In this document: piece by piece, positions 1-62,265 of the stretch
Numbering within the stretch: position 1 is the stretch's first letter
Layout: each line of letters starts with the position of its first letter
NCBI RefSeq assembly: GCF_963921235.1
Contig: NC_086108.1
Location: 18,104,001 to 18,168,000, forward strand
DNA from: Mobula hypostoma
Taxonomy: Eukaryota
Direction of reading: 5' to 3'
DNA: 64,000 nucleotides
Notes under the pieces: model-generated
The model's input: only the letters and a program-made list of their open reading frames with translations
The model's database searches: none
What the model was told of the DNA's origin: nothing
Translations under genes and position numbers: made by a program

Positions 1-600
1 TTAATGATTTACTCATATGTAATCATAGAATTATACTCCGAATTATACCGCAATCTGGTTAATTGGGTTCATCAACACAATTATTGCACTATTGAAAGCT
101 TCATTGAGTAGATTATTGGTATATTTATTCATTCTCTGATCTAACCAGTCATCTTTCTCATTGTTTTTTAACAGACATCTGATAACTATGAATCATTTAC
201 TGACCTGATGATTGAACTGGTTAGTCATTGATAGATGTCATTAATTCTTGGAAAGTTGTCAATGGACTGTGTTAACACAGCAAATGATATGATTATTGGT
301 TGTGGCATTACTTGGTCTGTTATTGGGTTGCTCAATCTGATTCCTCTTTTACCATGATCACTGATTGTATTATTGGTGCGTTGAATATTTAATCACCTTG
401 ATTATTCGGCTATTCAGTAATTTCAATGTCAAATCATTTGTTGATTCATTCATTTGGGTACTTGTGACTAATCATTGTTACAGTTCTGAAACATCCACTG
501 AACTTGTTGCTTTATTCATTGTTAACCCTCCACTGTCAGAAGAATCATTTTATCTGTTTGCACATGTGCAGAGAGGGCCTTTGTGTGACTGTACTTGAAA
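1..600 (+). repeat. Degenerate ~32-bp tandem repeat block (backbone satellite)
   Basis: Recurring GATTATTGG / GAATCATT / ACTGA words, e.g. gattattggt near 111 and 291; boundaries approximate. Confidence 0.6.
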
Positions 601-1100
601 CATTGTGTACAGTTTTCATTTTCTTACCATGCAATGAAGAATTACCAGCTGGTGGATTTGCAAAGGTGGAGAGACTGAGTCAACTTGTACTGTGAAGAGT
701 TAAGAAATAGAGTGGGGGGGGGGGTGTAATCTCTAAGATTTACAAAATTCTCATAGGGATTGTCAGAAGATACTGGGAGAGTGCTTACCTTGGCCAAGGA
801 CTCTAAGACTAGAGGTAGGGGATATTTTGAAAATTAGGGCAGCCATTGTGGACTGGGGTGCAAAGAAATGTCTTCACTCAGAGGTTGGTGAATGTTTGGT
901 ATTCTTTGTCCATGAGGATCATTGAGGTTTAATAACTGAGGTTCAGTTTTGTAATAGTGAATGATAGATTTCTGGGACTTGGGGAAATCAGGGTTGTGGA
1001 AATAATGAAAAAAATATTGCTGAAATGAAAGATTAGCTGAGATTTTGAGTGCTGGGACAACTTGAAGGGCTAAATGGCCTACTGCTGCTGTTATTTCTTG
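600..1100 (+). mobile_element. Old CR1 LINE 3' end remnant
   Basis: Decayed CR1 3' motifs (ttcactcagaggttggtgaat..tggtattct; gaagggctaaatggcctactgctgct). Confidence 0.6.
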
Positions 1101-1384
1101 TAGCTCATTGACTGGAAGTTTGGTTTGCTGTATTGTTTGAATCATTGAGTAGCTAGTGAATAATTGTTCTATGGTATAAATCACTGATATAATTGTTTGT
1201 CCACAAATCCATTATAAAGCATCCTCTAGGGAAGAGTGATCACAAGATTGAATTTCACAACTGATTTGAGAACAAAACTAACTTAGTTAAAGATAATGAC
1301 AAAAATTTGCAGGCATCATTAGCTGAAGTATTTCGGGAAGTTAGATTAGAAGGTAAAATGGTAGATGTGAAATGGCAGATGCTA

Positions 1385-1580
1385 ATGGAAATATGTGAAC
1401 ATTGTCAACAGGGGTTTAGCTTCCAGATCCAGGGTGTCAAATTCAATCCTGACATTGAGTGCTGTCATTGTGGAGTAGGAGCATTCTCCTTGTGACAATG
1501 TTTCCCCCAGATGCTCTGGTTTCCTCCCACACTGAAAGTAGTAATGTAGATTATTTTGCCAATATAGGTTGCTGTATGTT
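1385..1580 (+). mobile_element. Degenerate V-SINE-like element
   Basis: V-domain-like core tttcccccagatgctctggtttcctcccacactgaaag. Confidence 0.5.
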
Positions 1581-1749
1581 AACAGAGGGAGGAGAAGAAT
1601 CAAAGGAGCCTTTCTAAGGTGGCATGATAGAGAATGGATTGCAGAACCTACGGGAAACAAACAGGAATAGCTTGGATGGCATTGATCTGGGAGATGTTAT
1701 GGATCCAAAGGGCAGCTTGGTTTTCAGGAGGTGTTATACGCTCTTTCCC

Positions 1750-2097
1750 TCTGTTAGCCTGGAAGTCACCCTTGGGTAAGATGTGGCAGCTGCTTAGCAG
1801 CCACCACCCCACCACCCCACCACCCCACCAGCTGATCAGGGTCATGTGAAGCTGTGGGAGCAGCTGGTGTATTTCACAAATCCTGGTTATGCGACCTCTG
1901 ACAGCAGGCAGACAGTCTTTATAGAGTACTGATATTGGCTTGCGGGGGGTGGGGGGAGGCGGGGAATCACCTATCTTGTAAAGACACTGCCCATAAGAAG
2001 GCAATGGCAACACTTCTATTGAAAAATTTGCCATGAGCTATCATGGTCAAAGACCATGATCACCTCTATCATATGACACGGCACATAATGATGATGA
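1750..2097 (+). mobile_element. SINE or LINE fragment with RTE/BovB-like 3' tail
   Basis: agaaggcaatggcaacacttct...tttgcc resembles the RTE/Bov-A 3' motif; ends in a short (tga)n tail. Confidence 0.45.
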
Positions 2098-2129
2098 GGT
2101 TTCCAGTTATGGCTTTATAATAAAGTAAA

Positions 2130-3247
2130 CACTGCAGAAAAATAGACTCTTCAGCCTAACTTGTCCATGCCAAACACAGTACCCACCAAGCTAGCCCCAT
2201 TTGCTTGTGTTTATCCCATATTCCTCTGAACCTCTTATTCATGTATTTATCCAAATGTCTTTTAAATATTGTTAGTGTACTTCAACAACTTTCTCTGGCA
2301 GCTCATTTAATATATGCACCACCCTCTACATGCAAGAGTTGCCCTTCATGGTCTCTTTAAGTCTTTCACTTTAAACCTGTGCACTTTAGATTTTGATTCC
2401 CCTCCCTGGGAAAAAGACAATCTGCATTCAGCTTATCCACATCCATCATAATTGTATACATTTCTATAAGGTCATAGTCAATGGAATGTATAAATGTTTG
2501 TTGAGAAATAAAATCACTAAGAGATAATCTATGTTTTGATTCATGATGCTATGGATGGTATCAACTTCAACAAAAAGAGATTATAATGTTGTAAAGACTA
2601 CCAATAAATTTGACTACTGGTAACATTTTAGAAACCAGCAAATTCATGATTAAAAGTGACAAGAGAGAAAAATGTAGGCTGTGAAAGTAATCTGGTAAAA
2701 GAGGTAAGAGAGAAAAAGAAACCAGTGTGGTCATCTTCATGCATATAAAATGGGAACAGCAAAAGTAACATTGATTCCTCCTTGAGATGAGGGACTTAAT
2801 AATGGGGGAATGTGGAAATGGCAGAGATCTCCAGTAAGTATGTTGTACCTACTTCAAAAAAGAAGACATTACTCATTGGAGTTTAGAAGAATGGAGTGGA
2901 GGGGGTATCTTGTTGGAATCTATTAAGTAGTGAAATGCCTATCAGAGTGGGTGTGGGGAAAATGATTTCTATAGTGGGGGAGTTGAGAACCAGAGGTCAC
3001 AGCCTCAGAATAGAGTGACGTCCATGGAGAAGAGAAGAGGAATTTCTATAGCTAGAGGGTACTGAATCTGTGGAATTCATTGCAAATGGCTGGGAAGGCC
3101 AAGGCATATTTAAAGCAGAGGTTGATATATTGGGTGTCAAATATTATGGGGAGAACACAGGGTTGAGAAGGGTAATAAATCAGCCTTGATGGAATAATGG
3201 AGCAGACTTGATGGGCTAAATGTCTGGTTCTGCTACTATGTCTTATA
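2130..3247. mobile_element. Old CR1 fragments (minus ~2130-2475, plus ~2600-3247)
   Basis: CR1 3' motifs on both strands (agaaccagaggtcacagcctcagaatag; gaatctgtggaattcattg). Confidence 0.6.
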
Positions 3248-3249
3248 CA

Positions 3250-4685
3250 AGTCAGAGTATTGGTCTGCTTAATTTATTGATTTGATTATTTGTCTCTGAA
3301 TACATTCACTGGTCTATTATTCTGGTGAGATATTGGACTGTTTGATTACCCGTTCCATGTAAAACTGTTGGCTATCAGCAGCGCATCGTTGTATCTATAT
3401 CCAATGCAAAGGTATGGTCTATGCTTGAGGTCATTTGCAACTGATCTGACCTCTGACCTCTTGTTCAGTTCTTTAACATCAATGACCTCAGAGGCAATAA
3501 ACATTTATGCAGACTCTCGGCTGTCAGCCATCCAGGGAAGGTAAGTAATTTGTGTTCAGTTTTATTTATATTACTTCATAGAAATGTTGCAATTAGTAGG
3601 TTATTATATTTTAATTTATTGAAAGTTTTGTTATTTTCAAAACTATATGCATGTAATTTCTCAGTGTTTCTGACTTTCAGAGGCAATTTGAAATGGTGGA
3701 AAATCTCTTGGATCGCACAGGCTGTGATTGAGGTGATTGGAAACCTGTAGCATCAACATGTAAATGTGGCAGAAGCTATCCTTTGAGCCATTCCTTCACT
3801 CAACTAAGTTACTGAAGTCAGTTTTGATCTTCAGTTGACCCCTTATTTGAATTTTAATAATTTGTTGATTCAGCTGTTAATGTAAGTATTGATCACTGTT
3901 CTTCGACTATTAGACTGCTTCATCATTCAGGTCTGGTTAATACTGTGCTGAGTATTTGTAACTTTGACAATTGGCATATTTTTTCATTCATTCAGTAATT
4001 TTATGGTCTGTTCAGATTTCATTGCTCTGAATGTGGTTCAATTTTTTTTTTACATCAGTTAGTATCCAATTACTGGCCTGATTTATCTGCCAAATGGATT
4101 GTTGATCTGCTAAATTCATGGTTCTCACCATTCATTGGTTTATTTGTTCATTGATATTACCACTCTGTAGAATGTTCAGGTTTTCTCTCTGCCTGGCTGT
4201 TTACGATTTTATGTTTACTACGTAAATATGATTATTAGAGACAACAGAATGCAGATGCTGGAATGTAAAACACTAAACACTGCTCTGAAAGAACTTTATG
4301 GGTCATGCAGCAGCTGTGGGAGAAATAAATAGCTAATGTTTTGGTCCACAATTTCTTTTGAGATCAAAACATTGACAATTTCTTTCCTCATACAGATGTT
4401 GCATGACATGATCACTGAATTCCTCCAGCACATTGTTTGCTGCTCAGTATGGTCATCAATTTGTTATTTCCTTCACTCAGCTGATTATTGGTCTGTCAAA
4501 TTATTATTGATTGATATAGTTAATTGTTTTATTTCTTAAGAAATATTTCTTCTATACCTATCACTGAACTGACTGTTAATGCAATAAACCATTCACTAAT
4601 TGTCTGTTGAACCACTTATTAAACTGAAAAATGGTGCATTTCAATCACAGTTCTGCATTGCTTTATTGAATCAGCAAGACTGAAT
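3250..4685 (+). repeat. Degenerate ~32-bp tandem repeat block, interrupted by a candidate exon and a Penelope terminal-repeat remnant
   Basis: ctgattattggtctgtc at 4481 and many variants. Confidence 0.6.
3469..3540 (+). other. Candidate 72-nt host exon
   Basis: ctgac branch-like motifs, ctcttgttcAG acceptor and perfect AAG|GTAAGT donor; two frames open (FFNINDLRGNKHLCRLSAVSHPGK or SLTSMTSEAINIYADSRLSAIQG). Confidence 0.5.
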
Positions 4686-4687
4686 TA

Positions 4688-5802
4688 GAAACATAGAAAA
4701 CCTACAGCACAATACAGGCCCTTTGGCCCACAAAGCTGTGCTGAACATGTCCTTACCTGAGAAATTACCTAGGGGTTACCCATAGCCCTCTATTTTTCTG
4801 AGCTCCATATACTTGTCCAGGAGTCTCTTAAAAGACCCTATCGTATCCGCCTCCACGCCTCACCACTGCTGGCAGCCCATTCCACGCCTCAGCACTCTCT
4901 GCGTTTATTAAAAAAAATCTTGCCCCTGACATCTCCTCTGTACCTACTTCCAAGCACCTTAAAACTGCCTCTCATGCTAGCCATTTCAGCCCTGGGAAAA
5001 AGCCTCTGACTATCCACATGATCAATGCCTCTCATCATCTTATACACCTCTATCAGCTCACCCCTCATCCTCCATCGCTCCAAGGAGAAAAGGCCAAGTT
5101 CACTCAACCTATTCTCAGAAGGCATGCTCCCCAATCCAGGCAACGTCCTTGTAAGTGTCCTCTATCCCTTTCTATGGTTTCCACATTATTCCTATAGTGA
5201 GGTGACCAGAAATGTGCGCTGTAGTCCAAGTGGGGTCTGACCAGAGTCCTATATAACTGCAACATTACCTCTCGGCTCCTAAACTCAATCTCATGTTTGA
5301 TGAAGGCCAACGCACTGTATGCTTTCTTAACCATAGCCACGCAGCCTGATCCCCCACGCTGCCAAGAGCCTTACCATTAATACTATATTCTTACCATTAT
5401 ACTATATTTGACTTACCAAAATGAACCACTTCACACTTATCTGGGTTGAACTTCATCTGTCACTTCTCAGCCCAATGTTGCATCCTATCAATGTCCCGTT
5501 ATAACCTCTGACAGCCCTCCACACTATCCACAACACCTCAACCTTTGTGTCATCAGCAATTTTACTAGCCCATCCCTCCACTTCTTCATCCAGGTCATTT
5601 ATAAAAATCACAAAGCGAAGGGGTCCTAGAACAGATCCCTGAGGCACACCACTGGTCACCGGCCTCCATGCAGAATATGACCTGTCTACAACCACTCTCT
5701 GCCTTCTGTGGGCAAGCCATTTCTGGATCCACAAAACATTTCTGGATCCCTTGGATCCCATGCCTCCTTACTTTCTCAATAAGCCTTGCATGGAGTACCT
5801 TG
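4688..5802 (-). mobile_element. 5'-truncated CR1 LINE (RT C-terminus and 3' UTR), frameshifted
   Basis: ORFs with [28 protein letters not shown]; tail (ttctatgt-like) at 4688. Confidence 0.92.
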
Positions 5803-5809
5803 CCTAAAC

Positions 5810-6800
5810 ACTCTAAATATTGTGCTGATTAATAATTTCCTGGCCAATTGAATCATTCAAAGCTCTAACCTGTCTGTTAACATTTTGAAATTTCCTATTA
5901 TTCTGTTGAACATCTGAATATTGTACTGTTGACATTTTCACTGACCGGAGGGAATAAATCAGTAATATGAGTATTGGGTTCTTAAATAATCAAATGAAAT
6001 GTGTTCAATCTGTGATTTTGTTTTCGACTTTTTGAGATTATTGGTCTGATGGTGGGTCTTTTGAATTGTTTATTTATCTGATAGTTTGTGTGCTAATTTG
6101 CTGATGTTACTGTGGGTCTGCTGAATCTTTCCTCGCTATGTGTTATTAGTTTGGTGAATCATTCACTGATCTGATTATTGGTCCAGAAACCATCTGTTTT
6201 GATTGCTAGTACTTCATTAATTTGTCTGATCTATCAATTATTGAATGAATTATTGGTCTGGCAATTGTTTAATCAGTTGATCAGTCTGTCCCATTTGTAA
6301 TCTAAGCATTTGTGCTCAGAAACTGTAATTGCTTGGATTATTAATCTATTGAATTAAATTGATGTCTGTCAGCATGTTAATTGATCAAGTTTTTCACTTA
6401 ACTACTTGTCTACTGAGCTATTGATTTGGTGAGTAATTCATGGGATTGAATACTGGAACGCTGAATCATTAAATGACCCGATGATTGAGATGTTGATTCA
6501 CTCCCTGCATTATGGTCTCTTAAACAAAGCTGAATCACTTTTTAAATTGTATTATTGTTAATAAGTCTATATTGTTGGGCAAATCACTTATCTGTTGAAA
6601 TCAATCTGAATTATTATATTTTTGCATCAATTAATGATCTCCATTTGCTGAATCATTCATTAATGTGCCTTATTAGTTGGTGTAAGCATTTTCAGACCTG
6701 ACTCTTAAATAGTTGACTGACTCACTAATCTGATTAATACTCTTAAATTATTAGTTGCTATGATATTGGTTTGATAAATCATATATTTATCTAATGTTTG
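5810..6800 (+). repeat. Degenerate ~32-bp tandem repeat block
   Basis: ttattagt at 6143 and ttattggt at 6175 are 32 nt apart; gaatcattcactgatctgattattggtc at ~6156-6183. Confidence 0.7.
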
Positions 6801-8468
6801 GTCTTCGGTATTCACCAATGAGAGGGAACTTGATGATGGTGAGGACAATATGAGTGAGGTTGATGTTCTGGAGCATGCTGATATTAAGGGAGAGGAGATG
6901 TTGGAATTGTTAAAATACATTAGGACAGATAAGTCCCCGGGACCTGACGGAATATTCCCCAGGCTGCTCCACGAGGCAAGAGAAGAGATTGCTGAGCCTC
7001 TGGCTAGGATCTTTATGTCCTCGTTGTCCACGGGAATGGTACTGGAGGATTGGAGGGAGGCGAATGTTGTTCCCTTGTTCAAAAAAGGTAGTAGGGATAG
7101 CCCGGGTAATTATAGACCAGTGAGCCTTACGTCTGTGGTGGGAAAGCTGTTGGAAAAGATTCTTAGAGATAGGATCTATAGGCATTTAGAGAATCATGGT
7201 CTGATCAGGGACAGTCAGCATGGCTTTGTGAAGGGCAGATCGTGTCTAACAAGCCTGATAGAGTTCTTTGAGGAGGTGACCAGGCATATAGATGAGGGTA
7301 GTGCAGTGGATGTGATCTATATGGATTTTAGTAAGGCATTTGACAAGGTTCCACACGGTAGGCTCATTCAGAAAGTCAGAAGGCATAGGATCCAGGGAAG
7401 TTTGGCCAGGTGGATTCAGAATTGGCTTGCCTGCAGAAGGCAGAGGGTGGTGGTGGAGGGAGTACATTCAGATTGGAGGATTGTGACTAGTGGTGTCCCA
7501 CAAGGATCTGTTTTGGGACCTTTACTTTTCGTGATTTTTATTAACGACCTGGATGTGGGGGTAGAAGGGTGGGTTAGCAAGTTTGCAGACGACATAAAGG
7601 TTGGTGGTGTTGTAGATAGTGTAGAGGATTGTCAAAGATTGCAGAGAGACATTGATAGGATGCAGAAGTGGGCTGAGAAGTGGCAGATGGAGTTCAACCT
7701 GGAGAAATGTGAGGTGGTACACTTTGGAAGGACAAACTCCAAGGCAGAGTAAATGGCAGGATACTTGGTAGTGTGGAGGAGCAGAGGGATCTCGGGGTTC
7801 ATGTCCACAGATCCCTGAAAGTTGCCTCACAGGTGGATAGGGTAGTTAAGAAAGCTTATGGGGTGTTAGCTTTCATAAGTCGAGGGATAGAGTTTAGGAG
7901 TCGCAATGTAATGATGCAGCTCTATAAAACTCTGGTTAGGCCACACTTGGAGTATTGTGTCCAGTTCTGGTCACCTCACTATAGGAAGGATGTGGAAGCA
8001 TTGGAAAGGGTACAGAGGAGATTTACCAGGATGCTGCCTGGTTTAGAAAGTATGCAATATGATCAGAGATTAAGGGAGCTAGGGCTTTACTCTTTGGAGA
8101 GAAGGAGGATGAGAGGAGACATGATAGAGGTGTACAAGATAATAAGAGGAATTAGATAGAGTGGATAGCCAGCGCCTCTTCCCCAGGGCACCACTGCTCA
8201 ATACAAGAGGACATGGCTTTAAGGTAAGGGGTGGGAAGTTCAAGGGGGATATTAGAGGAAGGTTTTTCACTCGGAGAGTGGTTGGTGCGTGGAATGCACT
8301 GCCTGAGTCAGTGGTGGAGGCAGATACACTAGTGAAGTTTAAGAGACTACTAGACAGGTATATGGAGGAATCTAAGGTGGGGGCTTATATGGGAGGCAGG
8401 GTTTGAGGGTTGACACAACATTGTGGGCCAAAGGGCCTGTACTGTGCTGTACTATTCTATGTTCTATG
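6801..8468 (+). mobile_element. 5'-truncated CR1 LINE, ORF2 RT domain broken by two frameshifts
   Basis: ORF 6850-7752 (KSPGPDG, NYRPVSLTS, DFSKAFDKV, GVPQGS, FADD) continued in 7773-8159 and 8161-8406; (ttctatg)n tail. Confidence 0.96.
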
Positions 8469-8569
8469 TATTATTAAATACTAATCAGATAGTGGTAAAT
8501 CAAGTCATATTTGCTGATATGTTGATTGCCTTATTGAATTATTTCTTGACATATAAAGTAGAAGTGTTG

Positions 8570-10505: not shown

Positions 10506-10539
10506 GAGAATCAGGCCATCATCTCCAATGGATTTTGAA

Positions 10540-11285
10540 CAGATCATTGTTACATGACTGACCCAACGGTCTGATTTATTTGTCAGAGACCTGATTTTTT
10601 TTGATCTTTTGAATCTTTTATTGTTCTCATATTGTTGGAAGATTATTAGTCTGTAGATTCATATACGGATCTGGTTAGTTTGAATCACTGATCAAATTAA
10701 ATCTGTTCGTCCCGAGTTATTGATATGGTAAATCAATCATTGACGTGTATATTGGCCATTTAATTAATTTAATAATCTATATCTGTCACAGTGTCTGGTT
10801 GCGAACCCAAATGTAAGACACAGACACTGAAGTACAAGGAACAGGACTTGACTAGAGTAGGGACGTGAGAGGATACAGACAAGGAGCAGGGACAAGAACG
10901 CAGACTTGGGCTTGGACTCCGAGCCAGAGACTGGACAAGGACCTAGGACCTGGGTCTTGCCTTGGGCTCGTACCCCAGAACTAGGCAAGGACATGACATG
11001 ATTACAGGACAGGATGTGGCTGGGGTCTAGAGAATTGGGTCTTGAGGCTGGGGTCTTGGACTTGAGGATGGTTTATACACAAATCTTTCATTTTGCTACT
11101 TCTCTCTGATTATTTGTCTGTCTCATCACAAATCTGTATTGATCATTGTTCAGATAATTAATATTGTTGTGGATCTATCTATGGATAGACTTTTATTTGT
11201 TGTCTAGTTCATTCATCATGTTATTTGTAGACATATTCATTAATCTTTTTATTGAACTATTACATAATTCATTGATCAGGTTTCT
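10540..11285 (+). repeat. Degenerate ~32-bp repeat block containing a probable LTR fragment (~10784-11070)
   Basis: gaagattattagtctgtagattcat, tgaatcactgatc; the GA-rich insert starts TGTCAC but no second end or TSD was found. Confidence 0.5.
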
Positions 11286-11299
11286 GTGCTCAGTTCCAA

Positions 11300-11750
11300 T
11301 AGCATTAGAGGAAGTCTGAAAGAGATTTACTGGGCTAAATCCTAGGATGAGAAGTTGCCCTGTCAAAAGCCAAACATCTTAATTCTATATTCTTTGAAAT
11401 ATATAAGCCTCCTAAGGAAAATATTTTCTATAGTGGGAATTTTGTTGCTTATGAGAAACAAGTTTTAAATCAATGGGCCAGCCTTTTAAACCAAGTACAC
11501 TGATATTTCTTCTTGTAGCAGATGATGAACTTTTGGAATTCTCTGGCACAGAGTTATAGAGGCTGGGTTGTTCAAAGCATTTGAAGTGGAGGTAAATAAA
11601 CTTTTGAAAGACCAGGCAATTGACGATAAGGACCTGTCACAGAAGGAATTGGGGCCTGGGATAAATCAGCCATAATGATATTGAATGCTGGGAAAGGCTT
11701 GAGCAGATGAGGGGCCAAGGGGCCGATTCCTGTTCTGGTTTTTTTGTGTT
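11300..11750 (+). mobile_element. Old CR1 3' remnant
   Basis: gatgatgaacttttggaattctctg, ataaatcagccataatgatattgaatg. Confidence 0.55.
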
Positions 11751-13374
11751 ATTCCTCTGTTGAATTGGTCACTGTTCTGGCCATTAGTGTTGTAAATTGT
11801 TTCTTATTTGACTGTTGCTCTACTTCTATTGCTTTATATTTGCAGTTGGCAGGCTAATTAAAAAGGTGCCTTACTGCCACCTACTGAACTGGAGTGTGAG
11901 GAGGATTCAGGAGAGTGCTATGCTCCTACCATCACCATCCTCTAGAAGAAATAATACTAAAGATAAGGATAAATATATATATATCGCCCAATGCTACTGA
12001 CTTAAATTGCATTAAACTACCCAATCAAGTTTCAAGAATTTAAATAGTTGTGCTTTTTTCTTGCTTCTTGACCAGATGCACCAAACTATCTAAAGTAACA
12101 ATGTTGCTTCCCAGGGTCTGCGTTCTCTCCCACTCGTATGCCCTACATTCCAATAACACGTGTGAGACTATCTCTGGAAGTCAACACCGTCTGCATTCAC
12201 CTGAAGTATGTTTATCAAGACTAAGCATTGTGGCATTTAAACTAGTATGGTATAGTAAGTTGAGTAATTATAACTTCCTTCCTTCTGGGCCTTCCTCTCC
12301 TCCAAAGTGAAGTAACCTTTTTCTGAATTCCATATAAATGTCTCCCCTTCAATTATGTATCCCACAGGTGCTGCCAGATTGAGAGAACATGGTCCTTAAT
12401 TAAAACATGGCCCTAATGCAGTGGAATATCAATATCAGCAGCACCAACCTTCATGGATTGTCTAGTCAGACTGCTTCATCGCCTTCCATCTGGGAGATGG
12501 AATCCACGAAAAGCAGATACGCACTCCTAAAAGCTGTAGCCGTAACCATGTTTGTCTAACTTCCAACAAAACGTCCGGATGATTATTGGACACACACACA
12601 CCTTCAGACTCCACAATACAGAGAAGGAATCAGAACAGACAACAACAGTTAGACTGTACATCCTCTATCCACTGCAATGCAAGAAAGATTGCCACCATTT
12701 CAATAGCATAAACTGAAAGTTTATTAGATAAGCTTTTTCTCATTGACACCTGAAATTCTGGGACATAGGCTGCAGCAACAGTGTAATGAGACACAGGATC
12801 TTAATCACTGGAACCATTCTATCATATTGATGCATATACAGAGTCAATGCTACCCCTCAGGATACACATTGGGCACATTCCGACAGCCTCTCCCAAAGAC
12901 TCGAATCTACCCGAGGTAAAGGAAGTTGCCAGGGAGGAGTAATGAATAAGGCCACTAGGAGCATGGTTATATTGATCAGTTCCTTTCCACGCAAACCTTG
13001 CAGTCTTGATGATCCCAACACTCTTTCAATATATTCTTAGTTGGATGATCATCCTCATGACCACTGAGGTGTACCCATTAATCACAGCCATCTGCAATCT
13101 TCGCAAATACAATGACATCTGCAGAGCAGAAACAGGAGAAGACCCAGCAGACATAAAGCCTGGGGTTTGAATAACATCCAGCAATATCAAAAATGAGGAG
13201 GCGGCACAACCATCTGCAACACAGAATAATCTAAGACTGCTCTAATCAATGCATAATGCACTGTAATCGTGATGCCCTATTAAATCCTCAGTCATATCCC
13301 ACCAAACACAGAAGCACTTTAAGGACAACCTTGTATCTCCCAAATATTTTATTGACATGAAGCTTCCAAGCAAG

Positions 13375-17897: not shown

Positions 17898-18759
17898 TGT
17901 TACGTACCCCGTAACTGGGTTGCCAAACCGGCAGAAATGGATCACTCAGTTGGAGTCTGGAGTACTAGAACTAAGAAAGTTTTATTAAAGAAACAAGCAA
18001 CACAGTAATCGAAAGGATAATAAATGCAACAGTTCAGCGATGATAAACACACATGTGCACAGAATTAAGATAACAGCATCAATCAAGCTCTATCGTTGTC
18101 TAGGGGTAAATGACCAAATTTCAAAGTGACTCAAAGTTCAGTCCAGTTTAGTAGTTCAGTTCGCAGTAATCGTTGCCATGGTGATGGACAACGTGGGGGA
18201 AGAGAGAGATAGAACAGGAACAACTGATCATTCAGACACGGCTTCACTCACAGACCGGCGAGATGGCTCACAAGCAACTTTTGGGTGGGTCCTTGGTGAT
18301 GTCACCTGAGGTCACCGACTGTGACCCCTCCTCCAGATGCAGTTGATCCTCTGCAGTGAACCCGGCACCCAGGCAAGGGCGGACACACACCGGGTTCCCG
18401 CTGATCGTACCTTTCCACCCCGGCCGTTGTCTGGTACTTCTCACCGACTCGTGAGAAGCGTACCGCTTCCAGGGTCTCGTTACCTCGGGTGGCGTGTGTG
18501 TCCTGCCTTAGCGAACCTGTCCCTTTTTATCCCCCTGCTGGGGCATCGCCTGTCCACCACTTCAAACAGTTCAGGGTTCAAAGGGGGAGCCGCTCCAGAC
18601 AGCTCTCTCTCCCCCGTCCCTTCATTACACATCTCCAGACGCTGCTCCATTGTTCCTTATCTCTCCTTCCCCTGAGGGCAGGTGGCAGACCACTTGCTGA
18701 TGTCACTGATGCTAACCCAGGCCAGCAAACATCTTAATTTTATGTGTATTCTCGTCACA
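17898..18759 (-). repeat. 3' LTR (862 bp)
   Basis: TGTTAC...GTCACA; direct repeat of 21936-22797; minus-strand AATAAA at 17981-17986. Confidence 0.97.
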
Positions 18760-18773
18760 CTTCCCCCCTTTAA
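18760..18773 (-). promoter_or_regulatory. Polypurine tract
   Basis: Minus strand ttAAAGGGGGGAAG directly abutting the 3' LTR. Confidence 0.85.
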
Positions 18774-18879
18774 GGATTTTTACCGGGAGGTAAAAATTAC
18801 AAACATGAATACATTATTTGATACATACACAAATATACATCTTTATCAGCTATTTGGCTAACACAGCGAGTTTGAAGCG

Positions 18880-20034
18880 GTCAACACCTTGACAGACAGT
18901 CATCACATTTTCTGTTCCTTTTACACGTGTTATTAATAATCTCTTAGACCAGGCTCCAACTCAGCAAACTTCATAGTGGCCAAAACCACTGATGAATTGC
19001 GACCAATGTAACCTCTCATTTGATTTTGTCCCGGACCACAATAACAAGGGTCATCCCATTCCGACTCAGTTTTCTCTCGCAAGGGCTTAGTAGGAGGGGG
19101 ATGGGTATTGACCGCAGAGTTATTGCAAAACTTCCTGCAGTACCCCACCATCTCCAAGAGCCTTCTGAGGGCCCTCTTGTCCGTCGGGGTTAGGAGGTCA
19201 GCGATAGCCTGCACTGTAGCTTGCATCGCTGCCAGCTGCCCCTGTGTCACCACAATTCCCAGGTAAGTGACCCTCGTGTGGCCGAATTCATTTTTTTCAA
19301 GGTTCACTATCAAGCTGGCTTCAGACAGCCGTATTAAATTACCAATACACACCTCTGTGTTCATCAGCCCTTTAGTCACTGAATTACTCATTATATATGA
19401 GTGTTCTTTACTAGGCTGCCCTATTGTAACAGACATCACCCAACGTCCCAGTTCTTTGCATTTCCTCGGGACAATCAAACACACGGGTGCGAGTCGTTTA
19501 ATTACTTCTTCTAAAGATTCGCTTTGTTCGGGGATTAAGGGAGAGACCTTATCAGTAGACCCGGCCAAAACAATAGCCTTCTCCCATTTGATCGATCCCA
19601 TACTAATCTTTTCAAAACGGTTTTTTCCTCTTATCAGGGGGCCCCTAGCTTCATTGATTTCCACGCTAACACCGACTGGGTTTGTTAGCATATCAAAAGC
19701 CGGTGACTGTCTCAGTTCGCGTCGGTCATGATCAATAACATTTTTCCCCCTGGGCAGCCGGTAAATCTCTTTCATGATTCCACCAACTGTTTCCTCCAGC
19801 ACTGCAAAATGTCCACCGGGGGGGTACCTCGTGGGCCATGTTAAAAACCTCATCCCCATAACTCTTTTGCACCACCCCCCACTCCTCATCTGCGGATACT
19901 GTACTTGATTTCCCTTCCTTCCTTAGCACTTCCTCCTCCGCACAATAGTCTACTAGTTCCCTTGTCAAGGCTGTGTCAGAGAGAGCGGTCTCTGCCACAA
20001 CCATCAGCCCCTCGTCTCGCTCCTGCGTCTGCAC
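18880..20034 (-). pseudogene. pol: Internally deleted pol: integrase zinc-finger start, then RT thumb, then RNase H C-terminus
   Basis: EVFNMAHEVPP/GGHFAVLEET (HHCC region, ~19740-19850); LIVNLEKNEFGHTRVTYLG...RALRRLLEMVGYCRKF (RT thumb); ITRVKGTENV/DCLSRC* (RH end); no YxDD or DDE core. Confidence 0.75.
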
Positions 20035-20107
20035 AAATTCTTTCCTGGCTACTGCTACGTCCGTCCCAGCTCCCTCACTGCCTCTTGTTTCATTTCGTTC
20101 CGTCTTT

Positions 20108-21898: not shown

Positions 21899-21912
21899 AT
21901 TTAGCGTTCAAA

Positions 21913-21931: not shown

Positions 21932-21935
21932 CTTA

Positions 21936-41262: not shown

Positions 41263-41298
41263 AGTCCTGACGAAGGGTCTCTGCCTGAAACGTCGACT
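41263..41298 (+). ncRNA. Minimal type I hammerhead ribozyme motif
   Basis: AGTC-CTGACGA-AGG(gtctctg)CCT-GAAAC-GTC-GACT; complete core, stems I and II, palindromic ACGT stem III. Confidence 0.75.
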
Positions 41299-43722: not shown

Positions 43723-45070
43723 AGACCAAAACATCATAAGACAAAGGAGCAGAAGTCGGCCATTCGGCCCATTGAGTATGCTCCACCATTTTATCATGAG
43801 CTGATCCATTCTCCCATTTAGTTCCGCTCCCCCGCCTTCTCACCATAACCTTTGATGCCCTGGCTATTCAGATACCTATCAATCTCTGCCTTAAATACAC
43901 CCAATGACTTGGCCTCCACTGCTGCCCATGGCAACAAATTCCATAGATTCACCACCCTCTGACTAAAAAAATTTCTTCACATTTCTGTTCTGAACGGGCG
44001 CCCTTCAATCCTTAATTCATGCCCTCTCGTACTAGACTCCCCCATCATGGGAAACAACTTTGCCACATCCACTCTGTCCATGCCTTTCAACATTCGAAAT
44101 GTTTCTGAGGTTTCCCCTCATTCTTCTAAACTCCAAGGAATGCAGTCCAAGAGCGGACAAACGTTCCTCATATGTTAACCCTCTCATTCCCGGAATCATT
44201 CTAGTGAATCTTCTCTCCAACGTCAGCACATCCTTTCTTAAATAAGGAGACCAAAACTGCCCACAGTACTCCAAGTGAGGTCTCACCAGCACCTTATCGA
44301 GCCTCAACATCACATCCTTGCTCCTATACTCTATTCCTCTGGAAATGAATGCCAACATTGCATTCGCCTTCTTCACCACCGACTCATCCTGGAGGTTAAC
44401 CTTAAGGGTATTCTGTACGAGGACTCCCAAGTCCCGTTGAATCTCAGAACTTTGAATTCTCTCCCCATTTAAATAATAGTCTGCCTGTTTATTTCTTCTG
44501 CCAAAGTGCATAACCATACACTTTCCAACATTGTATTTCATTTGCCACTTCTTTGCTCATTCTTCCAATCTATCCAAGTCTCTCTGCAGACTCTCTGTTT
44601 CCTCAGCACTACTGGCCCCTCCACCTATCTTCGTATCATCAGCAAACTTAGCCACAAGGCCATCTATTCCATAATCCAAATCGTTTAGAAATTTCGAATG
44701 TTGAAAGGCATGGTCAGAGTGGATGTGGCAAAGTTGTTTCCCATGATGGGGGAGTCTAGTACGAGAGGGCACGACTTAAGGATTGAAGGGCGCCCATTCA
44801 GAACAGAAATGTGAAGAAATTTTTTTAGTCAGAGGGTGGTGAATCTATGGAATTTGTTGCCATGGGCAGCAGTGGAGGCCAAGTCATTGAGTGTATTTAA
44901 GGCAGAGATTGATAGGTATCTGTGTAGCCAGGGCATCAAAGGTTATGGTGAGAAAGCGGGGGAGTGGGACTAAATGGGAGAATTGATCAGCTCATGATAA
45001 AATGGTGGAGCAGACTCGATGGGCCGAATGCCCGACTTCTGCTCCTTTGTCTGAAGGACTTATGGTCTTA
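43723..45070. mobile_element. CR1 with inverted duplicated 3' end (minus 43723-44685, plus 44686-45070)
   Basis: CR1 3' UTR and tail at both ends; FADDTK and LVRPHLEYC on minus. Confidence 0.88.
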
Positions 45071-49645: not shown

Positions 49646-50084
49646 GCATAAGAGACCAAGATAGCTATTGAGGCCAGTAGATAAATATTGGCAAATACTT
49701 AATTTAATTAATGGAAGGTCTGCCCACATGTATTAACTATTTATTGGTATATTGAACATTCGCTCATAAGTGTGCTTATTGACATTGCAACGTTAAATCA
49801 ATTGTTGGTATGTCTATTGGTTTGTAAAAATAAGTTATTAACAAGTTTATAGGTTTGTTGCAAAATTCAGCGCAATGTTTAAGAGGCATTTAGAAAGGCA
49901 TATGAATAAGCAGGGAATGAAGGGATTTGGGCCTGATGCAAATAAACAGGATTATTTTAAATTGGCCTCATGTTCAGTCATCATGGACTATAGGTCCTGT
50001 TCATTCCTCCTTCCCATTCTACTATTGTCCACTCCGCTGTCCTCTCAGATAAACTTTCCCACCCACCTGACTTTACCCATCACC

Positions 50085-51456: not shown

Positions 51457-51659
51457 TCACCTGTCACCTTCCAACTCTTTCTCCTCCCCCCACCTTTTGA
51501 ATCAGGCATCTCCCCCCGTTCCCCCTCAGTCCCGAACAAGTGTCCCTGCCCAAACATCGACTGTTTACTCTTTTCCACAGTTGTTGTTAATTACTGGAAT
51601 AATTTGCTGAAATTACCTTTCATCTGTTAAATTGTTCACTAACCTGATTAATGGTTTCT

Positions 51660-52420
51660 TAACAATAATAATATTAACTTTATTTATATAGCACCTTTCA
51701 TACATTAAGATGCAATCTCAAAGTGTTTCACATAGATTGTAAATTCTAGGTAATAAAATGTAATGAAATATACCAAATTATGTAAATATAATTAATATCA
51801 ACAGGCATTAAGTAATCCTATAAATTGGCCAAATTAAAAAAGCAGATTTTTTGAAGTGGTTTGAAATGTTTCACAGTATTAGCCCCTTGTATCTCAGTAT
51901 TCCACAATTTCTGGTGCTTAAGAGCAAAAGGCCACATCACCAGTTCTTGTCTGCTTAGCTCTGGGGAAACTAAGCAAACCAGTATTCATGTATCTAAGAC
52001 TATGACTAGGGATGTAAGGGGATGGACACTCCAAAACATACGGAGGAGCTGGACTATTCAGAGCCTTGTACACAATTCAGAGTAGTTTAAAATTGATCCT
52101 AAAGGACACAGACTGCCAGCGCAAGGATGCCAGATTTTCTTTTTTGTTTAAGATTCCTGCTGCTGCACTTTGAACAAGCTGCAGCGAATTTATATCTTAG
52201 GCAGTCCTAAAAAAAAGTGCATTACAGTAGTCTAATTGGCTAAAACAAAAGCCTGCATCAATTTTTCTGCATCTTGAGATGTTATAAGAAATTGACCTTT
52301 TGCATGTTTCAATAATGAAAGAATGCAGTCTTAATAATATGGTTAAAATATGATTTGAAATTCAGCTCAGAGTTAATAATAGCACCTAAGATTTTACTTC
52401 TGGCTTGATTTGAAAGGCCA
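51660..52420 (-). mobile_element. L2-clade LINE 3' fragment
   Basis: DAEKLMQAFV..LDYCNALF..LQLVQSAAA remnant; 3' end tttatttatatagcacctttc...aaagtgtttcaca. Confidence 0.75.
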
Positions 52421-53202
52421 GATGATTCTTGAATTATTGGTTGATCTGATTATTGATCCGAAATTATTATTCATTGTTCTTGTTGGTTTGATAAAGCAAC
52501 CATTGATCTGATCATTGGCTTGTTCGCTCATACATCAACCAGTTCATTTATTAACCTCGCCTGTGGAATAGTTAATTGATTAATGGATTGTTGGAATTCT
52601 CCATTGATCAGGTTCTCCAAACCATTCACCGGTCAGATTAATTGTATGTTAACTATTTGTTGACATACTACCTCACTCCTTTGATTAATAATCAGATTCA
52701 TCTGTTTTTTCAATACATTGATCTAATTATTGTTCCACTGAAGGTTCAGTTGAGCTGACATATATGTGGTTGTCTAAGTCACTGACTTTTGTTCTTGCAA
52801 CATTGAATCTGATTATTAGTTGTTTGAACTATCTGTTGCTATGATCCTTGGAAATGTTTACTAATCTGTTTTACAGATCTGTTGTAATGTGAACAGAAAC
52901 TGCTGGGAACAGCCAGTAGGTCAGTCTGAGAAAGGATCCCAGATTTTAAGTGTTAATTCTTTCTACAGATAGTGTCTGACTTGCTGAGTGTTTTCAGCTT
53001 TTTCTGTTTTGATTTTAGATTTCAAGCATCTTCAGTTGTTTTGATTTTAACTTCCTATTGTACAAGGGAACAAAGTTTGCTGATGTATTTTTTGATCATA
53101 GTATACTTCTGTGAAGTCATTAACTAATCTGATTATTGAGCAGTTGAATTATTGGCTGATCAAGTGATTGAACTGTTGAACTCATAACAATCAAAACAAT
53201 TT

Positions 53203-53452
53203 GGGATGGCCCAGTAGCACAGCCATTAGCTCAACGTTATTACAATGCCAGCAATCCAGGTTTAATTCTGCTGCTGTCTGTAAGAACATACATTCTCTCC
53301 GTGGCTGTGTGGGTTTCTTCTAGGTGCTCTGGTTTCCTTCCACATTCCAAAAATGTACAGGTTAGTAGGATAATTGGTCACTTGGGTGTAATTGGGCAGG
53401 GAGAGCTCTTTGGGCCAGAAGAGCAGTTTACTGTGCTGTATCTCTAAATAAA
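53203..53452 (+). mobile_element. V-SINE-like element
   Basis: gtgggtttcttctaggtgctctggtttccttccacattccaaaaatgt core; ctgtatctctaaataaa tail. Confidence 0.7.
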
Positions 53453-53555
53453 CTCCAATTTTTGAAGAGATTATTCGTCTACTCATTATTATCCATTGTT
53501 TCATTATCAGGTTGCTTTATTGTTATGTCCATTTTCATGAGGTATAGTAGGCCAT

Positions 53556-53875
53556 GTGTTGGCCCGTGGCGAAGTGGTTAAGGCATTCGTGTAGTGATTT
53601 GAAGGTCGCTAGTTCGAGCCTTGGCTGAGGCAGCGTGTATGTCGTTGAGCAAGGCACTTAACCACACATTACTTTGCGATGACACCAGTGCTAAGCTGTA
53701 TGGGTCCTAATGCCCTTCCCTTGGCCAACATCGGTGACGTGGAGAGGAGAGACTTGCAGCATGGGCAACTGCTGGTCTTCTATACAGCCTTGCCCAGGCC
53801 TGCGTCCTGGAAACTTTCCAAGGCACAAATCCATGATCTGATGAGACTAATGAAAGCCTATTTAAAAAAAAAAGA
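53556..53875 (+). mobile_element. tRNA-derived SINE
   Basis: tggcgaagtggttaagg (A box), agttcgagcc (B box); A-rich tail; taggcca repeated on both flanks. Confidence 0.8.
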
Positions 53876-55227
53876 ATAGGCCAAAGGACCTGTTTTTAAG
53901 TTTACAACCCCAAGGCTCTACGATGGGGTATAAATTCATATCATTCTTTATTGCTCTGATTTTTCACATTTAAAATCATTGAAGGAACTGATTTATTATT
54001 TTTCTGTTGAATCATTTATTGATCTGATTATTGGTCACTTGGTTAATATTATTTATTCCTTTTGCTGGTGACTACTTTATATGCCTAATAATTTTACACT
54101 GATTTGATTACTGTGTAGTAGATTCAGTCAATAATTATTGTCATGTTGAATCATTCACTGATATTATTACTGGTCATTTGAAAATACAGACTGTAGTTCA
54201 CCTTTGTGAATTAATCAAATGACTAATAACTAGATTAATGAATTATTCATCCAAACAATATTGTGATCCTTGAATGATTCTGTAGACTAATAGCCATTAC
54301 AATTGAAAATATTGAATCAATTTAGCAATAAAATGATTGAATGAATGATTCAACAGGCTAATTGTTAGGGCAGTGAAAGACCCATAACAATTTCCCTGTC
54401 TTGTTTAAGAGATCAGTAATCAATCCAGTAAAAGACAGCCAAGACTGGAAAATTAATTCAATCAGCTAGGCAATTCTCAATTGATGTTCCACCCATTCAT
54501 CCAGCATTTTCTCTGGAGCTACTATTTGCATTTTTGCCATTCATTGGCAAGTCTAGGCTCTGTTGTGAGACAGGACTAGGCCTCAGGTGGAGGATCCAGA
54601 GATATCCCCTTGAATGCTTGCTGTCATTTGACCATATGGGATATTCAAAGCCAATTAAGATTGAAATAGTTCAAATTGATAAACATTATTAAAGAAAAGA
54701 ATAATTAAAATGAATTCAATCATATTAAAGTCCTGAAAATCAATTTAAAAAATACAAAATATAAAACGTACTTTTGCACATCTACTTTCACTTGGTGTCA
54801 GTGATTCCATTTAAACCAATGTCCATCATGACTCACAGCTCAATTGTACTGCAGCCCTGCACTTGGTGCTGAGTCCTTTGTTGGAGTAGAAAGTCAGATG
54901 TATTGATTAGCACATGCAGAAACCACGGGTGAACAGACCTCTGGAATTGTCAAACACAAGTAGGCACAATCTGGCTACTATCTTCCAGTGGACCACTACC
55001 AGGCCAATAATCAGGACTGTGAATGACTATGTAAGCACAACATTAATTTCAGCCAGTAAATTAATAGATCAATAAAAATAACTCATTAATAAATCAACAG
55101 ATTTATGAATCTAACACATCTGAAGCAGCATTCATTTGTTGAATCTTCATTGATCTGAAATGTGATCTAGCGATCTGATTGCTGGTCTGTTTAATAATAA
55201 TTAGCACAACATTAACAAATTATTATT

Positions 55228-55730
55228 GTGTGATCCTGAATCTCCAGAGGGGAAGGCCCTGAATCCTTGGCTTTGCTTGTTGCTCAGCGGCTGGGACGGG
55301 GTCGAAGCGCTCAGCAGAGATAGCGCTCGGTGTCGAAGGGCTGGTCGGAGGCTTGAAGTTTTTGGACGAATTCAGAGTCGGCTGGGGTCGGGTGCTTCCT
55401 ATGCATCGACAGTTGTCGGTGCCTGGAGGTTTATGGCAGACAGAGTTTCTCCCTTCTGCCGCCTGCTATTGGGGACTGCTGGGAGTCGATCGGAACTTTG
55501 AGACTTCTTTTTTTACTGTTCCCATGGTCTGTTCTTTATCAAATTATGGTATTGCTTTGCACTGCTGTAACTATATGTTATAATTATGTGGTCTTGTCAA
55601 TGTTAGTCTTTGGTTTGTCCTGTTTTTTTGTGAGGGCACTCTGGAGGAACATTGTATCATTTCTGATACATGCATGCATTTCTAAATGACAATAAACGAG
55701 GACTGAGTGTCCTCATACTCTAAAATCTAA
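55228..55730 (+). mobile_element. Unclassified short retroposon-like repeat
   Basis: CpG-rich 5' part, T-rich 3' UTR ending aaatgacaataaa...tctaaaatctaa. Confidence 0.4.
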
Positions 55731-55914
55731 ACATTACTACTCTCTAGAGTTGTTAATTGATCTGATTGTTGGTACATTGGTCTGACAGCTGCTTGTTTGA
55801 TCATTCAATGTTTTGATTGTTTCCCTCATCTGATTATTTGTTGTTAATAAGTCTATTGATCTGATTACTAGTCTGCTGAAACAGATTTTGATCAAAATAT
55901 CAGTCCGCTCAATG

Positions 55915-58744: not shown

Positions 58745-58964
58745 CATTCTGGCCACCGCTGCATTCCGCGGCCCGGGGGTTGGGGTGCTGGGACACTGGG
58801 GTGTCATCTCATCATCTGTTTCCATCAGGGCAGGCAGGTCATCATCTTCTATGTCTGCCTGCCTTGATGTTGAAGGTCGAGGTTCGTCGTCTGCTGTGGC
58901 TGATGTGGAAGGCTTGCTTGACTGCTTAGCCTTGCACATTTTTAGATCATACAATTCTTTGTAA

Positions 58965-59770
58965 TGTTACGTACCCCATAACTGGGTTGCCAAACCAGCA
59001 GGAATGGACCATTAGTTGGAGTCTGGTTTAACAGAAACTAATAAAGTTTTATTAAAGAAATAAGTAACACAGTACTCTAATCATAAGGATGTAAATGCAA
59101 CAGGTTAGCAATGATAATACACACGTGTACACAGAACTAGGGTAACAGGAATCAACCAAGTTCTACCGCAGTCTCGGGGTAAAATGATCAGTCTCAAGTG
59201 ATGCAGAGTTCAGTTCAGCTTAGTACAGTTCGCAGTAATCGCTGTTGTGCCGTTGGAGAGAGAGAGAATGCAGACCTTTGATGTTCAACAGCTGGTTTTG
59301 GGCGGACCCTTTTATGTCTTCTATGGTCACCGACTGTGACCCCTCCGTTCCGGATACGACTGTTCTTCCATGGTGAACCTGGCACCCAGGCAAGGGTGGA
59401 CACACACACCAGGTTCCCACTGATCGTACTCTTTTCACCCTGTGCATCTATGGTTGGTTCCCGCGAATTGGACCCCCAAATTCCACCAACTTGTGGGGGC
59501 ACACCGCTCTTCCAGGGTCTCGTTATCTCGTGATCTCGTGGTGTGTGTCGTGCCTTAGCGAACCTGTTCTTTTTATCCCCCTGCTAGGGTATCGCCTGTC
59601 CATCAAACTTCAAGCAGTTCAGGTTCAAAGCAACTGGTCTGTCAATACTCTGAGTTGTGTCTCTTTTCGTTGTCTCTCTCCTCTCTCATTAACATTTTGA
59701 ACGTTTCTCCATTTGTCTCCTTTATCTCTCTCATCAGCATTAATCTTCTGATAACTTGGTTTTTGTCACA
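58965..59770 (-). mobile_element. Solo LTR (806 bp) related to the Gmr1-like element, GTAA TSD
   Basis: TGTTACGTACCCC...GTCACA; GTAA at 58961-58964 and 59771-59774. Confidence 0.93.
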
Positions 59771-60559
59771 GTAAGCACTCAAGCCATCCTGCAAATATGC
59801 CCTAAACCGACATACCCTTTCAAAATTAAAAGTCGTACTTTATCGTTGCAGTAAAAATCTCATGCAGTTGCTTCACGTTCTGTTCCTGGACGACTTCACT
59901 TTTGGTCCGCTTGCTACTGCGTTCAGTTTCAATTGTTATCCTTTCCTCTTCCAATTGCATCATCTCTTCATCTATCAGTTCTTAGTCATGGGATGCCAAA
60001 ACCTCTTCAACGTCATCTTCGTCAACTTCCACAAGCCAAACTCACTTTGTCCTTGCTTCGTTCACCACGATCAAAACGCTTAATTATGTCTAGTTTTACG
60101 CTAATTGTAACACCCTTATGAGCTCTTTCAGGCTTTTCCAATACTTTAGAACTCATCTTGCTAACGGATGCTCACAGGCACGTGTTTAAGCAATGCCGGC
60201 TAGAATGCCGTTTCGAATCCTGGGGAGAGTGGCTGCTCGGGGCGCGCGCTGCTTTTTTCGCGCACTGCCTTTTTTCATAACAACGAAAACACCTTCTGTT
60301 AGCGAAAACAGGTAACTAATGTAGGTCTTTTGTAACAGTGAAGTTTCATAAAGCAAACGTTCGAAAAGCGGAGGACACCTGTACATTTATTAAAGCATAT
60401 CCTACTGCAGGGAGTGTCACTTTTTCATTTCGGTCTCATGATGACGACAGATGCTACACCTGCATTACCCTCTCTTCCTACCATTCAGTGCTCAGAAATT
60501 CTTTGCAGTTGAAGTAATGAGTGGCTTGCATTTTTTCCATTTTAATATAACATGTGCAC

Positions 60560-61145
60560 TGTTCACAATGTGGTACCCTTTACTGTGGAAGAGGGAAAGC
60601 TGGAGGTGTATGCACACAATGGTGACATGGGAAGACAGGCGGGGAAGGTGTTTGGCACACTGGCCTTCATCATTCAGGTAATTGACTATGATTTGGCATG
60701 TCATGTTTCAAATGTTCAGGCCATTGCTGTGTACAGTAACCATCTTTGAAGTTTTTTGTACAGTTCTAGTCACCCCTCTACAAGGAAGGAGTTATTATGC
60801 CATTCATATAAATATGATTTATATAAATATGTTGGATGGTTGCAGTCTTTACCCCAGGGCAGGGAAGTTCAAAACTAAAGGGCATAGACTTCAGCTGAGA
60901 AGGGAAAGATTTCTCAGAGGACTGAAAGGCACATTTTTCACACAGTGGTAAGTACGTATATGGAATGAGCTGCCAGCAGAGGTGATCAAGGTGGATACGA
61001 TTGTCATGTTTAAAATACATTTACATAGAAAATACTTACATGGATTGGAGCCAAATACAGGCAAATGGGACATGCTCAGGTAGACAGCCTTGTAAGCATG
61101 AACTAGTTGGGCTGAAGGACATGTTTCTGTGTATCTCTATCTTTA
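60560..61145 (+). mobile_element. Old CR1 3' remnant
   Basis: YPRAGKFKTKGHRLQLRRERF..GTFFTQ; tggaatgagctgccag. Confidence 0.7.
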
Positions 61146-61789
61146 TGTGTAAGTGTTGGTCACCTATTCTAATTAAAGAGCCATATGACGATTTTAGCCG
61201 ATGTATTGTTTGAGAAAATTAATGAATCAACATGGCACAAATATTGTTAAGTGTAGTTAGTTTCATTTCTCTGCATGTAGCTAATTTACAGAAATATTAT
61301 ATTGAGTTGTGAACACTGGAAAATACATCAGCATACATTACTTATTCCAATCCTGGGCAGAGGATATATGCCACCAATGTTTATCTGGTTAGGGGTTTCT
61401 GAATTTATCTACGTTGACACAACCAGGACTCATTCCCTGGAGACCAAACAAAAGTCAGGCTCTTGTCTACATTAATCCCATTTGAAGATGCAAGATTTCT
61501 GTTCAGTTCCTACCTATCAGGAAGCTCTGATTTTACTGCAATGATTCAATAAAATAACTGAATAGATAAAAACACATTTTCACTCCTAACATGTGCCAAT
61601 AACCTCTAACCATATTGTCAATAATCATATCCTCACCACTGCTATAAAATCTGGTGAAGGATATTGTTTTCTTCTGATAGTGTAGCACAGAAAAAAGACT
61701 GCCACTATTATAATGGTTACAGTATTTCAGATAGAATTTCTGTCATTATTTACTCCCTGCAATCAATTTTAAGTGTATCTTGTGCACCT

Positions 61790-62265
61790 GTTTATATCAG
61801 TGTGTTGAAACATCCATTGATCTAATCTTGGTCTGTTCTATCACTCACCTATCTGATCACTGAGATTGTTCATTTCAAAGTGAGATGGAATCATTTGTGA
61901 TCTATTTATTCTGATAAGTACACCTCTGTTAGTTTATATCCAGTAGGATCATTCATTAATCAGGTTCCATAGAATCACGTCTGATTGGTATATTTAGTGG
62001 AATCAGTCAGATTATTATTCATTTGGTATCATTTTGATTATTGGGCTGAATCAGAGTGTTCCTCAGTAGATCTACCCATTAATCTGATGATGGGTCAATG
62101 CAGTCATTCTTCATTCTGTTTATGGGTAATTAAATTCAATCATCAGTCTGATTATTGATCAGTAAAATTACTCGTGTTGTTCTGTAATATCAATTCACCT
62201 TGTAGCACTTTGCCCCCAGTTCAATCAATGTCAGTGGAATCAACATGTACTTGATATGATCACTG
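61790..62265 (+). repeat. Degenerate ~32-bp tandem repeat block
   Basis: gttgaaacatccattgatctaatcttggtctgtt; tctgattattgatc at ~62147. Confidence 0.6.

Follow-up and report, generated by a model that had tools for sequence, protein, structure and literature searches.

The 64,000-nucleotide stretch of Mobula hypostoma DNA analysed here (the window; RefSeq assembly GCF_963921235.1, contig NC_086108.1, positions 18,104,001 to 18,168,000, forward strand) contains a deeply decayed tandem repeat with a 32-nt unit. We consider this repeat probably to be what is left of a once-homogeneous satellite. Homogenisation would have ceased long ago, leaving the copies to be worn down by point mutations and small insertions and deletions, by one inversion and by repeated transposon insertion. 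A first-pass annotation had noticed the same unit recurring in the AT-rich DNA of seven regions (approximately 1–600, 3250–4685, 5810–6800, 10540–11285, 30290–31040, 52420–55910 and 61790–62265) and had read it as a fossil tandem array broken by insertions. The 32-nt repeat is real, confirming that observation, and the fossil-array reading is borne out by a hidden Markov model (HMM) of the unit, by star-like divergence between units and by the mobile elements lying between the pieces.

Across the seven named regions, lag 32 gave the top autocorrelation peak for 3-, 4- and 5-mers (z = 9.1, 9.9 and 9.4 against 60 dinucleotide shuffles), as the first-pass annotation had anticipated, and the 4-mer signal was also raised at lags 20, 12, 4, 28, 16 and 64. 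Taken region by region in the order given above, the lag-32 z-scores were 6.0, 0.5, 1.7, 4.8, 4.0, 6.0 and 2.3, and two of the seven regions lack the period by autocorrelation alone. A cyclic HMM converged exactly on the 32-nt unit that had been proposed. For blind training, models of 12 periods saw only the 2,472 bases of pieces lying left of 20 kb and were then scored on the 2,142 bases of pieces beyond that point. Starting from random seeds, the 32-mer model recovered the same unit from the left pieces and gained 626 held-out bits on the right ones, compared with 297–438 bits for the 11 other periods between 4 and 36 (300, 297, 336 and 410 for periods 4, 8, 12 and 16); the pieces had been picked with the 32-mer model, which biases this comparison toward 32, and three small pieces of the 25 were omitted or merged. 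The unit at 54004–54035, singled out earlier as near-consensus, matches the consensus at 31 of 32 letters, and 24-mers slid along the window matched it at 18 or more letters in 576 positions on the + strand and 34 on the − strand. Two further pairs of positions (6143/6175 and 53143/53175) had been offered as visible examples of the spacing; their anchors do lie 32 apart, but over their full length the units agree at just 13 of 32 and 14 of 32 letters.

The internal structure of the unit does not support the two related 16-mers first suggested. Its halves agree at 7 of 16 letters, and self-similarity at lag 16 is within chance (p = 0.14). Self-similarity at lag 12 (p = 0.002), and at lags 4, 8, 12 and 16 jointly (p = 0.0008), supports a 4-nt sub-period, and the unit is better described as eight diverged tetramers, which suggests a 4-nt simple repeat as its seed. 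The unit is non-coding, with stop triplets on both strands and a length that is not a multiple of three, such that every frame closes; a coding repeat was rejected on these grounds.

Decoding of the window at a posterior above 0.5 assigned 4,787 bases of the + strand to the repeat. Four block shuffles yielded 0, 31, 53 and 0 such bases, the complement none and the reversed sequence 278. The total is ~160 head-to-tail units in ~25 pieces, or 8% of the window (~4.8 kb on the + strand and ~0.4 kb on the − strand). The HMM and the lag-32 signal agree with the claim that one unit recurs across the seven regions, but it fills 55% of them (4,688 of 8,491 bases; just 42% of 52420–55910), and a further 507 repeat bases lie outside. 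The copies do not all share one strand, as had been claimed, the ~0.4 kb on the − strand belonging to an inversion at 54190–55110. Tandem-repeat masking would miss the array, as had been foreseen: among the 62 rows that Tandem Repeats Finder (TRF) returned at score 30, not one has a 32-nt period.

The units share 67% identity with the consensus, a Kimura two-parameter distance (K2P) of 0.44, and each of the eight clusters spread over 62 kb falls between 63 and 72%. Divergence among units is star-like, the pattern of an array that was once homogeneous and is no longer being homogenised. Neighbouring units are 50.1% alike (93 pairs) and those more than 5 kb apart 50.9% (4,977 pairs), while units at lags 1–6 are 48–51% alike against 51% for far units. 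Non-consensus letters are held in common at 0.425 by neighbours and 0.426 by far units, with values of 0.37–0.44 at lags 1–6 against 0.43 far away. Because near and far units are equally alike, neither a higher-order repeat nor local homogenisation is indicated; higher-order repeats of 64 and 96 nt were rejected, with unit lags 2–6 showing no higher-order period. The array is also distinct from a hypervariable minisatellite (variable number tandem repeat), in that its units are ~50% alike and not near-identical. The substitution spectrum is biased toward transitions and toward GC-to-AT change (C>T 0.28, G>A 0.26, A>G 0.13 and T>C 0.12), and CpG is depleted in the units with CA/TG interchange. 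The numbers of 32-mers with 25, 26, 27 and at least 28 matches to the consensus (22, 11, 6 and 4) are in line with those under simulated decay (25, 13.8, 6.3 and 2.4). Together, the star-like divergence, even decay and biased losses indicate that the units descend independently from one sequence, in an array that was once homogeneous and is now unmaintained.

The window is CpG-poor, retroelement-filled animal DNA, with long and short interspersed nuclear elements (LINEs and SINEs) of types that we take to be cartilaginous-fish-like. Insertion of such elements into the array is evident from self-BLAST, Pfam and the contigs of two relatives, organisms B and E. A 5′-truncated LINE on the − strand, presumably CR1-type, sits in the array at 4686–5801 (with loose ends at 4686 and 5801); a record from organism E spans 5767–6408, and the right junction of this LINE is common to organism E. 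A young CR1-type LINE with a Pfam match to RVT_1 occupies 6806–8468 on the + strand, and beyond it the repeat continues in register; the offset is +1 as run, or 0 when the LINE tail is taken to stop one base sooner. The match to the organism E contig breaks off at 6804, leaving 46 letters of that contig unaligned, whereas the organism B contig continues into the LINE at 6806; this is consistent with organism E not having the insertion, the far flank lying outside the aligned stretch.

For the comparison with relatives, four runs were aligned to 1–6830 at 80% similarity, where contigs show presence and not absence. The segment 3244–4680 is present in 19 of 24 listed runs from 7 studies, and organisms D, F and G contain 4–6% of words. 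Organism B differs from the window by 1.7–1.8% in repeat-rich contigs and 1.5–2.0% in other contigs; organism E differs at 67 of 964 letters at 5767–6804, 104 of 1,450 at 29–1530 and 86 of 916 at 2138–3082. Length is largely colinear with both organisms, except at 6409–6461, where organism E has ~170 more letters, reflecting either a deletion in the window lineage or an insertion in E. Of the 27 listed organism E differences within the repeat, 7 fall off the aligned columns; the other 20 comprise 7 where the window has the consensus letter, 7 where E has it and 6 where neither does, an even split that points to symmetric decay, as neutral decay predicts. Depth on repeat-only bins was about that of one orthologous contig at 80% similarity (3.6–5.5 in B and 15–22 in E), and so no abundant young array of the unit showed up. 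Repeat-only bins drew no high-depth contig in B or E, which is weak evidence on an active sister array.

The distance from the consensus is ~13 times the per-lineage distance to organism E and ~50 times that to organism B. If organism B is a congener, the split would be at most ~20 million years old, going by the accessible portion of bioRxiv 10.64898/2026.10.27.761883, and a split of 5–20 million years gives a clock age of at least 250 million years. The upper end of this clock age is impossibly old, and therefore rates or starting heterogeneity must have differed. In the available text of PMC2729386 (Shepelev et al. 2009), dead alpha-satellite arrays look 2–3 times older than they really are and can pass through a 2–3-fold faster phase, while an excerpt of PMC10587355 gives a low shark mutation rate (7 × 10−10 per base per generation). 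An age above 100 million years is likely, with a soft absolute value, and an origin predating the shark–ray split is possible. A bolder proposal, which we find doubtful, is that this is a Palaeozoic satellite predating that split. The slow pace of DNA change in cartilaginous fishes would have kept it legible at the orthologous locus throughout the group; it might mark an ancestral centromere, and a few units would since have been co-opted as protein-binding sites. Were this true, few dead tandem arrays recoverable from a vertebrate genome would be older, and part of the ‘unique’ DNA of sharks and rays would be unrecognised satellite.

A history that accommodates these observations would begin with an ATTG/ATTC-type simple repeat of 4 nt, whose copies diverged into eight tetramers before the resulting 32-mer was amplified by unequal crossing-over or rolling-circle copying. 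All pieces would derive from one array of at least 5 kb, in which homogenisation would have stopped everywhere at about the same time, likely more than 100 million years ago. LINEs, SINEs and long terminal repeat (LTR) elements would then have invaded the array, with the units decaying like neutral DNA and presumably serving no present function. One array is the simplest reading, and we infer it because the clusters share their orientation and decay level and have no flanks in common. The first-pass annotation had likewise proposed an array of several kb grown past 60 kb by insertions; the insertions are evident, but the single array is inferred, and gaps of 17.7 and 18.7 kb carry no repeat save one 41-nt piece. 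Those gaps are among several findings that weigh against this history. Just 30.4 kb of the 58.9 kb of non-repeat DNA can be assigned to mobile elements with the window's own sequence, leaving 28.4 kb that in-window evidence assigns to neither the repeat nor a mobile element, much of which bears reverse transcriptase fragments or high depth. Five of the six junctions tested for register are too decayed to read, leaving one in register. The array ends outside the window on both sides, and the absolute age is soft, as noted. The units at 54005 (31/32) and 6152 (30/32) exceed simulated decay, in which 0.12 units with at least 30 matches are expected and 31 matches were reached in 1% of 300 simulations; these two intact units are the one unexplained hint and could reflect chance, local conversion or co-option. 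Lastly, the repeat differs from organism E at 90 of 1382 letters and other DNA at 167 of 1946 (p = 0.03; ~25% fewer in the repeat), a count that takes the 23 differences listed for 29–446 (among 40 of 363 rows) as complete. The repeat is more AT-rich (32% GC against 37–39% in neighbouring DNA), which may explain the shortfall.

The gaps near 18 kb, the 28.4 kb of unassigned DNA and the ends lying outside the window would all suit a different origin, as would the shortness of the unit: a dispersed minisatellite within an ancient mobile element, such as a large DNA transposon or a Helitron-like element whose interior carries tandem arrays; the clusters would then be several copies of it or the interior of one. 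We judge this unlikely, given that the clusters all share one orientation bar the single local inversion, that self-BLAST within the window found no shared flanks between them and that Pfam found no transposase or helicase in 117 open reading frames searched. The idea that there is no true 32-mer, just a decayed 4-nt microsatellite or cryptic simple sequence, draws on the autocorrelation peaks at many multiples of 4, on the 4-nt self-similarity of the unit and on jumps by multiples of 4, which make up 22 of 108 against 4 of 79 in simulation. It is largely refuted by the 626 held-out bits at period 32 and the blind relearning of the unit from the left third, and we give it very little credence.

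Selection might maintain the array or a few units for a role in a non-coding RNA or as a protein-binding or chromatin element (through AP-1-like, homeodomain or CCAAT words); we regard this as improbable, albeit less so than the microsatellite. The two unusually intact units and the lower number of differences to organism E would fit it, and independent columns predict 3.9 intact copies of TGAATCA where 11 occur, the second highest ratio among 32 words. Most 7-mers exceed expectation, however, with a median ratio of ~1.4, and GGTCTGT does so as much as TGAATCA. ATTGG and TGATTA, with 14 and 18 intact copies where 11.7 and 14.3 are expected, do not stand out. Differences to organism E are not shifted toward non-consensus sites, the rate to organism B is the same inside and outside the repeat, Rfam returned no match at gathering scores, and transposon invasion has been heavy. 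The density of such words, from which a binding role had been suggested, is a circular argument, the words being parts of the unit itself; both G columns of ATTGG rank with the most poorly kept in the unit (0.48 and 0.45). For a protein-binding role, then, the sequence gives weak hints. A presumed RNA run, X20, gave no cover on most repeat-only bins, which is not evidence on expression.

The alpha-satellite monomer of primates is 171 nt long. The period here is 32 nt, the unit has no sequence relation to alpha satellite, array DNA makes up only 8% of the span, and neither a centromere link nor an active sister array was seen. What the array shares with dead (monomeric) alpha satellite, as far as the accessible text of PMC2729386 describes it, is a sequence of events: homogenisation stopped, followed by divergence, retroposon insertions and no higher-order period. 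Decay is deeper here, with pairwise identity of ~50% against 71% in the oldest human alpha-satellite layer (same source, in part). Ancient satellite families are known in sturgeons (PstI), bivalves (BIV160) and frogs (PcP190) from the portion of PMC4877019 available, and conserved satellites in alligators and caimans from that of PMC10900743; our array resembles these in being a tandem repeat long-lived across related taxa. As those excerpts present them, such families are common to living species, whereas this repeat is seen only in dead form, the contigs of two relatives yielding no young copies at 80% similarity.

We did not find the unit described in the literature searched, where supplementary repeat libraries could hold it. 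The parts available of PMC10620051, PMC11406177 and two bioRxiv preprints name no such unit, and those of PMC12428016 give no usable date. Rfam was silent, exact unit patterns hit 0 loci in viral and metagenome contigs, and a distant blastn of 53985–54185 found nothing in phages, these collections being poorly suited to a fish repeat. As far as the searched literature and Rfam go, the unit is new as a repeat family, whereas the dead satellite array is already known as a kind; no new mechanism is needed, the process being an ordinary one. The significance is modest: the array represents the end stage of a satellite's life, far past TRF detection, with an ancestral unit that can be recovered and mapped in other sharks and rays. 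If it is older than the shark–ray split or marks an old centromere, it would be a marker for karyotype evolution, and mobulids are a group with large chromosome fusions according to the accessible part of bioRxiv 10.64898/2026.10.27.761883.

The pieces lie on the + strand except where stated. At the left edge, decayed units form two runs of ~11 units in all (66–456; decoding, with orthologous contigs in organisms B and E), and the array may continue leftward beyond the window from 66. HMM and decoding agree on a remnant of ~3 units at 3251–3350 and on runs at 3853–4173 (~10 units), 4431–4673 (~7 units), 5841–6814 (the longest, ~28 units, including the 30/32 unit at 6152) and 30308–31022 (~21 units). 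Decoding adds a small remnant amid mobile-element fragments (1125–1212), a remnant at 8480–8549, two runs divided by an insertion at ~10780–11130 (10535–11287, within which TRF finds a younger 28-nt duplication at 11193–11253) and a remnant that precedes a 17.7-kb block of nested mobile elements (11749–11824). Rightward, it gives remnants outside the named regions at 49742–49869 and 51584–51662, runs at 52427–52882 and 53075–53181 (52427–53181), remnants at 55130–55197 and 55733–55914 (55130–55914) and the last remnants in the window at 61795–62179. The best-kept run, at 53944–54182 (HMM and unit matching), holds the 54004–54035 unit and adjoins the local inversion of ~0.9 kb (54190–55110; 24-mer matching and HMM), in which − strand repeat at 54190–54440 and 54990–55110 encloses 550 nt of other DNA. 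Foldback-type inverted arms were ruled out here, as forward repeat flanks the inverted part on both sides.

The 41-nt piece at 29534–29574 (+) has derived letters in common with 30931–30965 (E = 1.9e-7 among repeat pieces), and from this sequence match it is likely a local copy and not part of the backbone. At 29534–29576 it stands between two fragments of an apparently broken LINE, 1.4 kb from its partner stretch, and may have been copied in as templated filler during the repair of a break.

Pfam and homologue searches turned up no host gene in the window, and a crude splice-site scan of 16 unassigned regions returned no exon. A 140-nt intron-like stretch with a strong donor and acceptor look lies in low-copy DNA between repeat runs at 3541–3680 (+); it has no protein homologue and may represent the 5′ portion of an old LINE. 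A unique-looking, terminal-exon-like stretch at 35900–37400 (−) has a good acceptor at ~37335, a frame of 50 codons and, at ~36015, a word resembling a poly(A) signal; its LITAF-like Pfam match is under the cut-off (20.3 against 23.8 bits), and no homologue was found.

Among the mobile elements elsewhere in the window, an LTR retrotransposon at 17898–22797 has two 862-nt LTRs that are 99.8% alike and a SCAN/zinc-knuckle gag; with an interior of only ~3.2 kb, it appears to have lost much of pol. A solo LTR at 58964–59630 is 72% like those LTRs. The element at 38724–41361, which we take to be Penelope-like although Pfam gave no match, has inverted ends of ~650 nt that are 92% alike and a 39-nt tandem duplication at 40648–40738. 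In a LINE copy at 43723–45068, the 3′ 380 nt occur twice in inverted orientation, 95% alike. A young SINE at 53548–53883 is flanked by a 7-nt target-site duplication (other 5–7-nt matches of this kind could be chance) and has relatives at 24548–24671 and 62972–63271.

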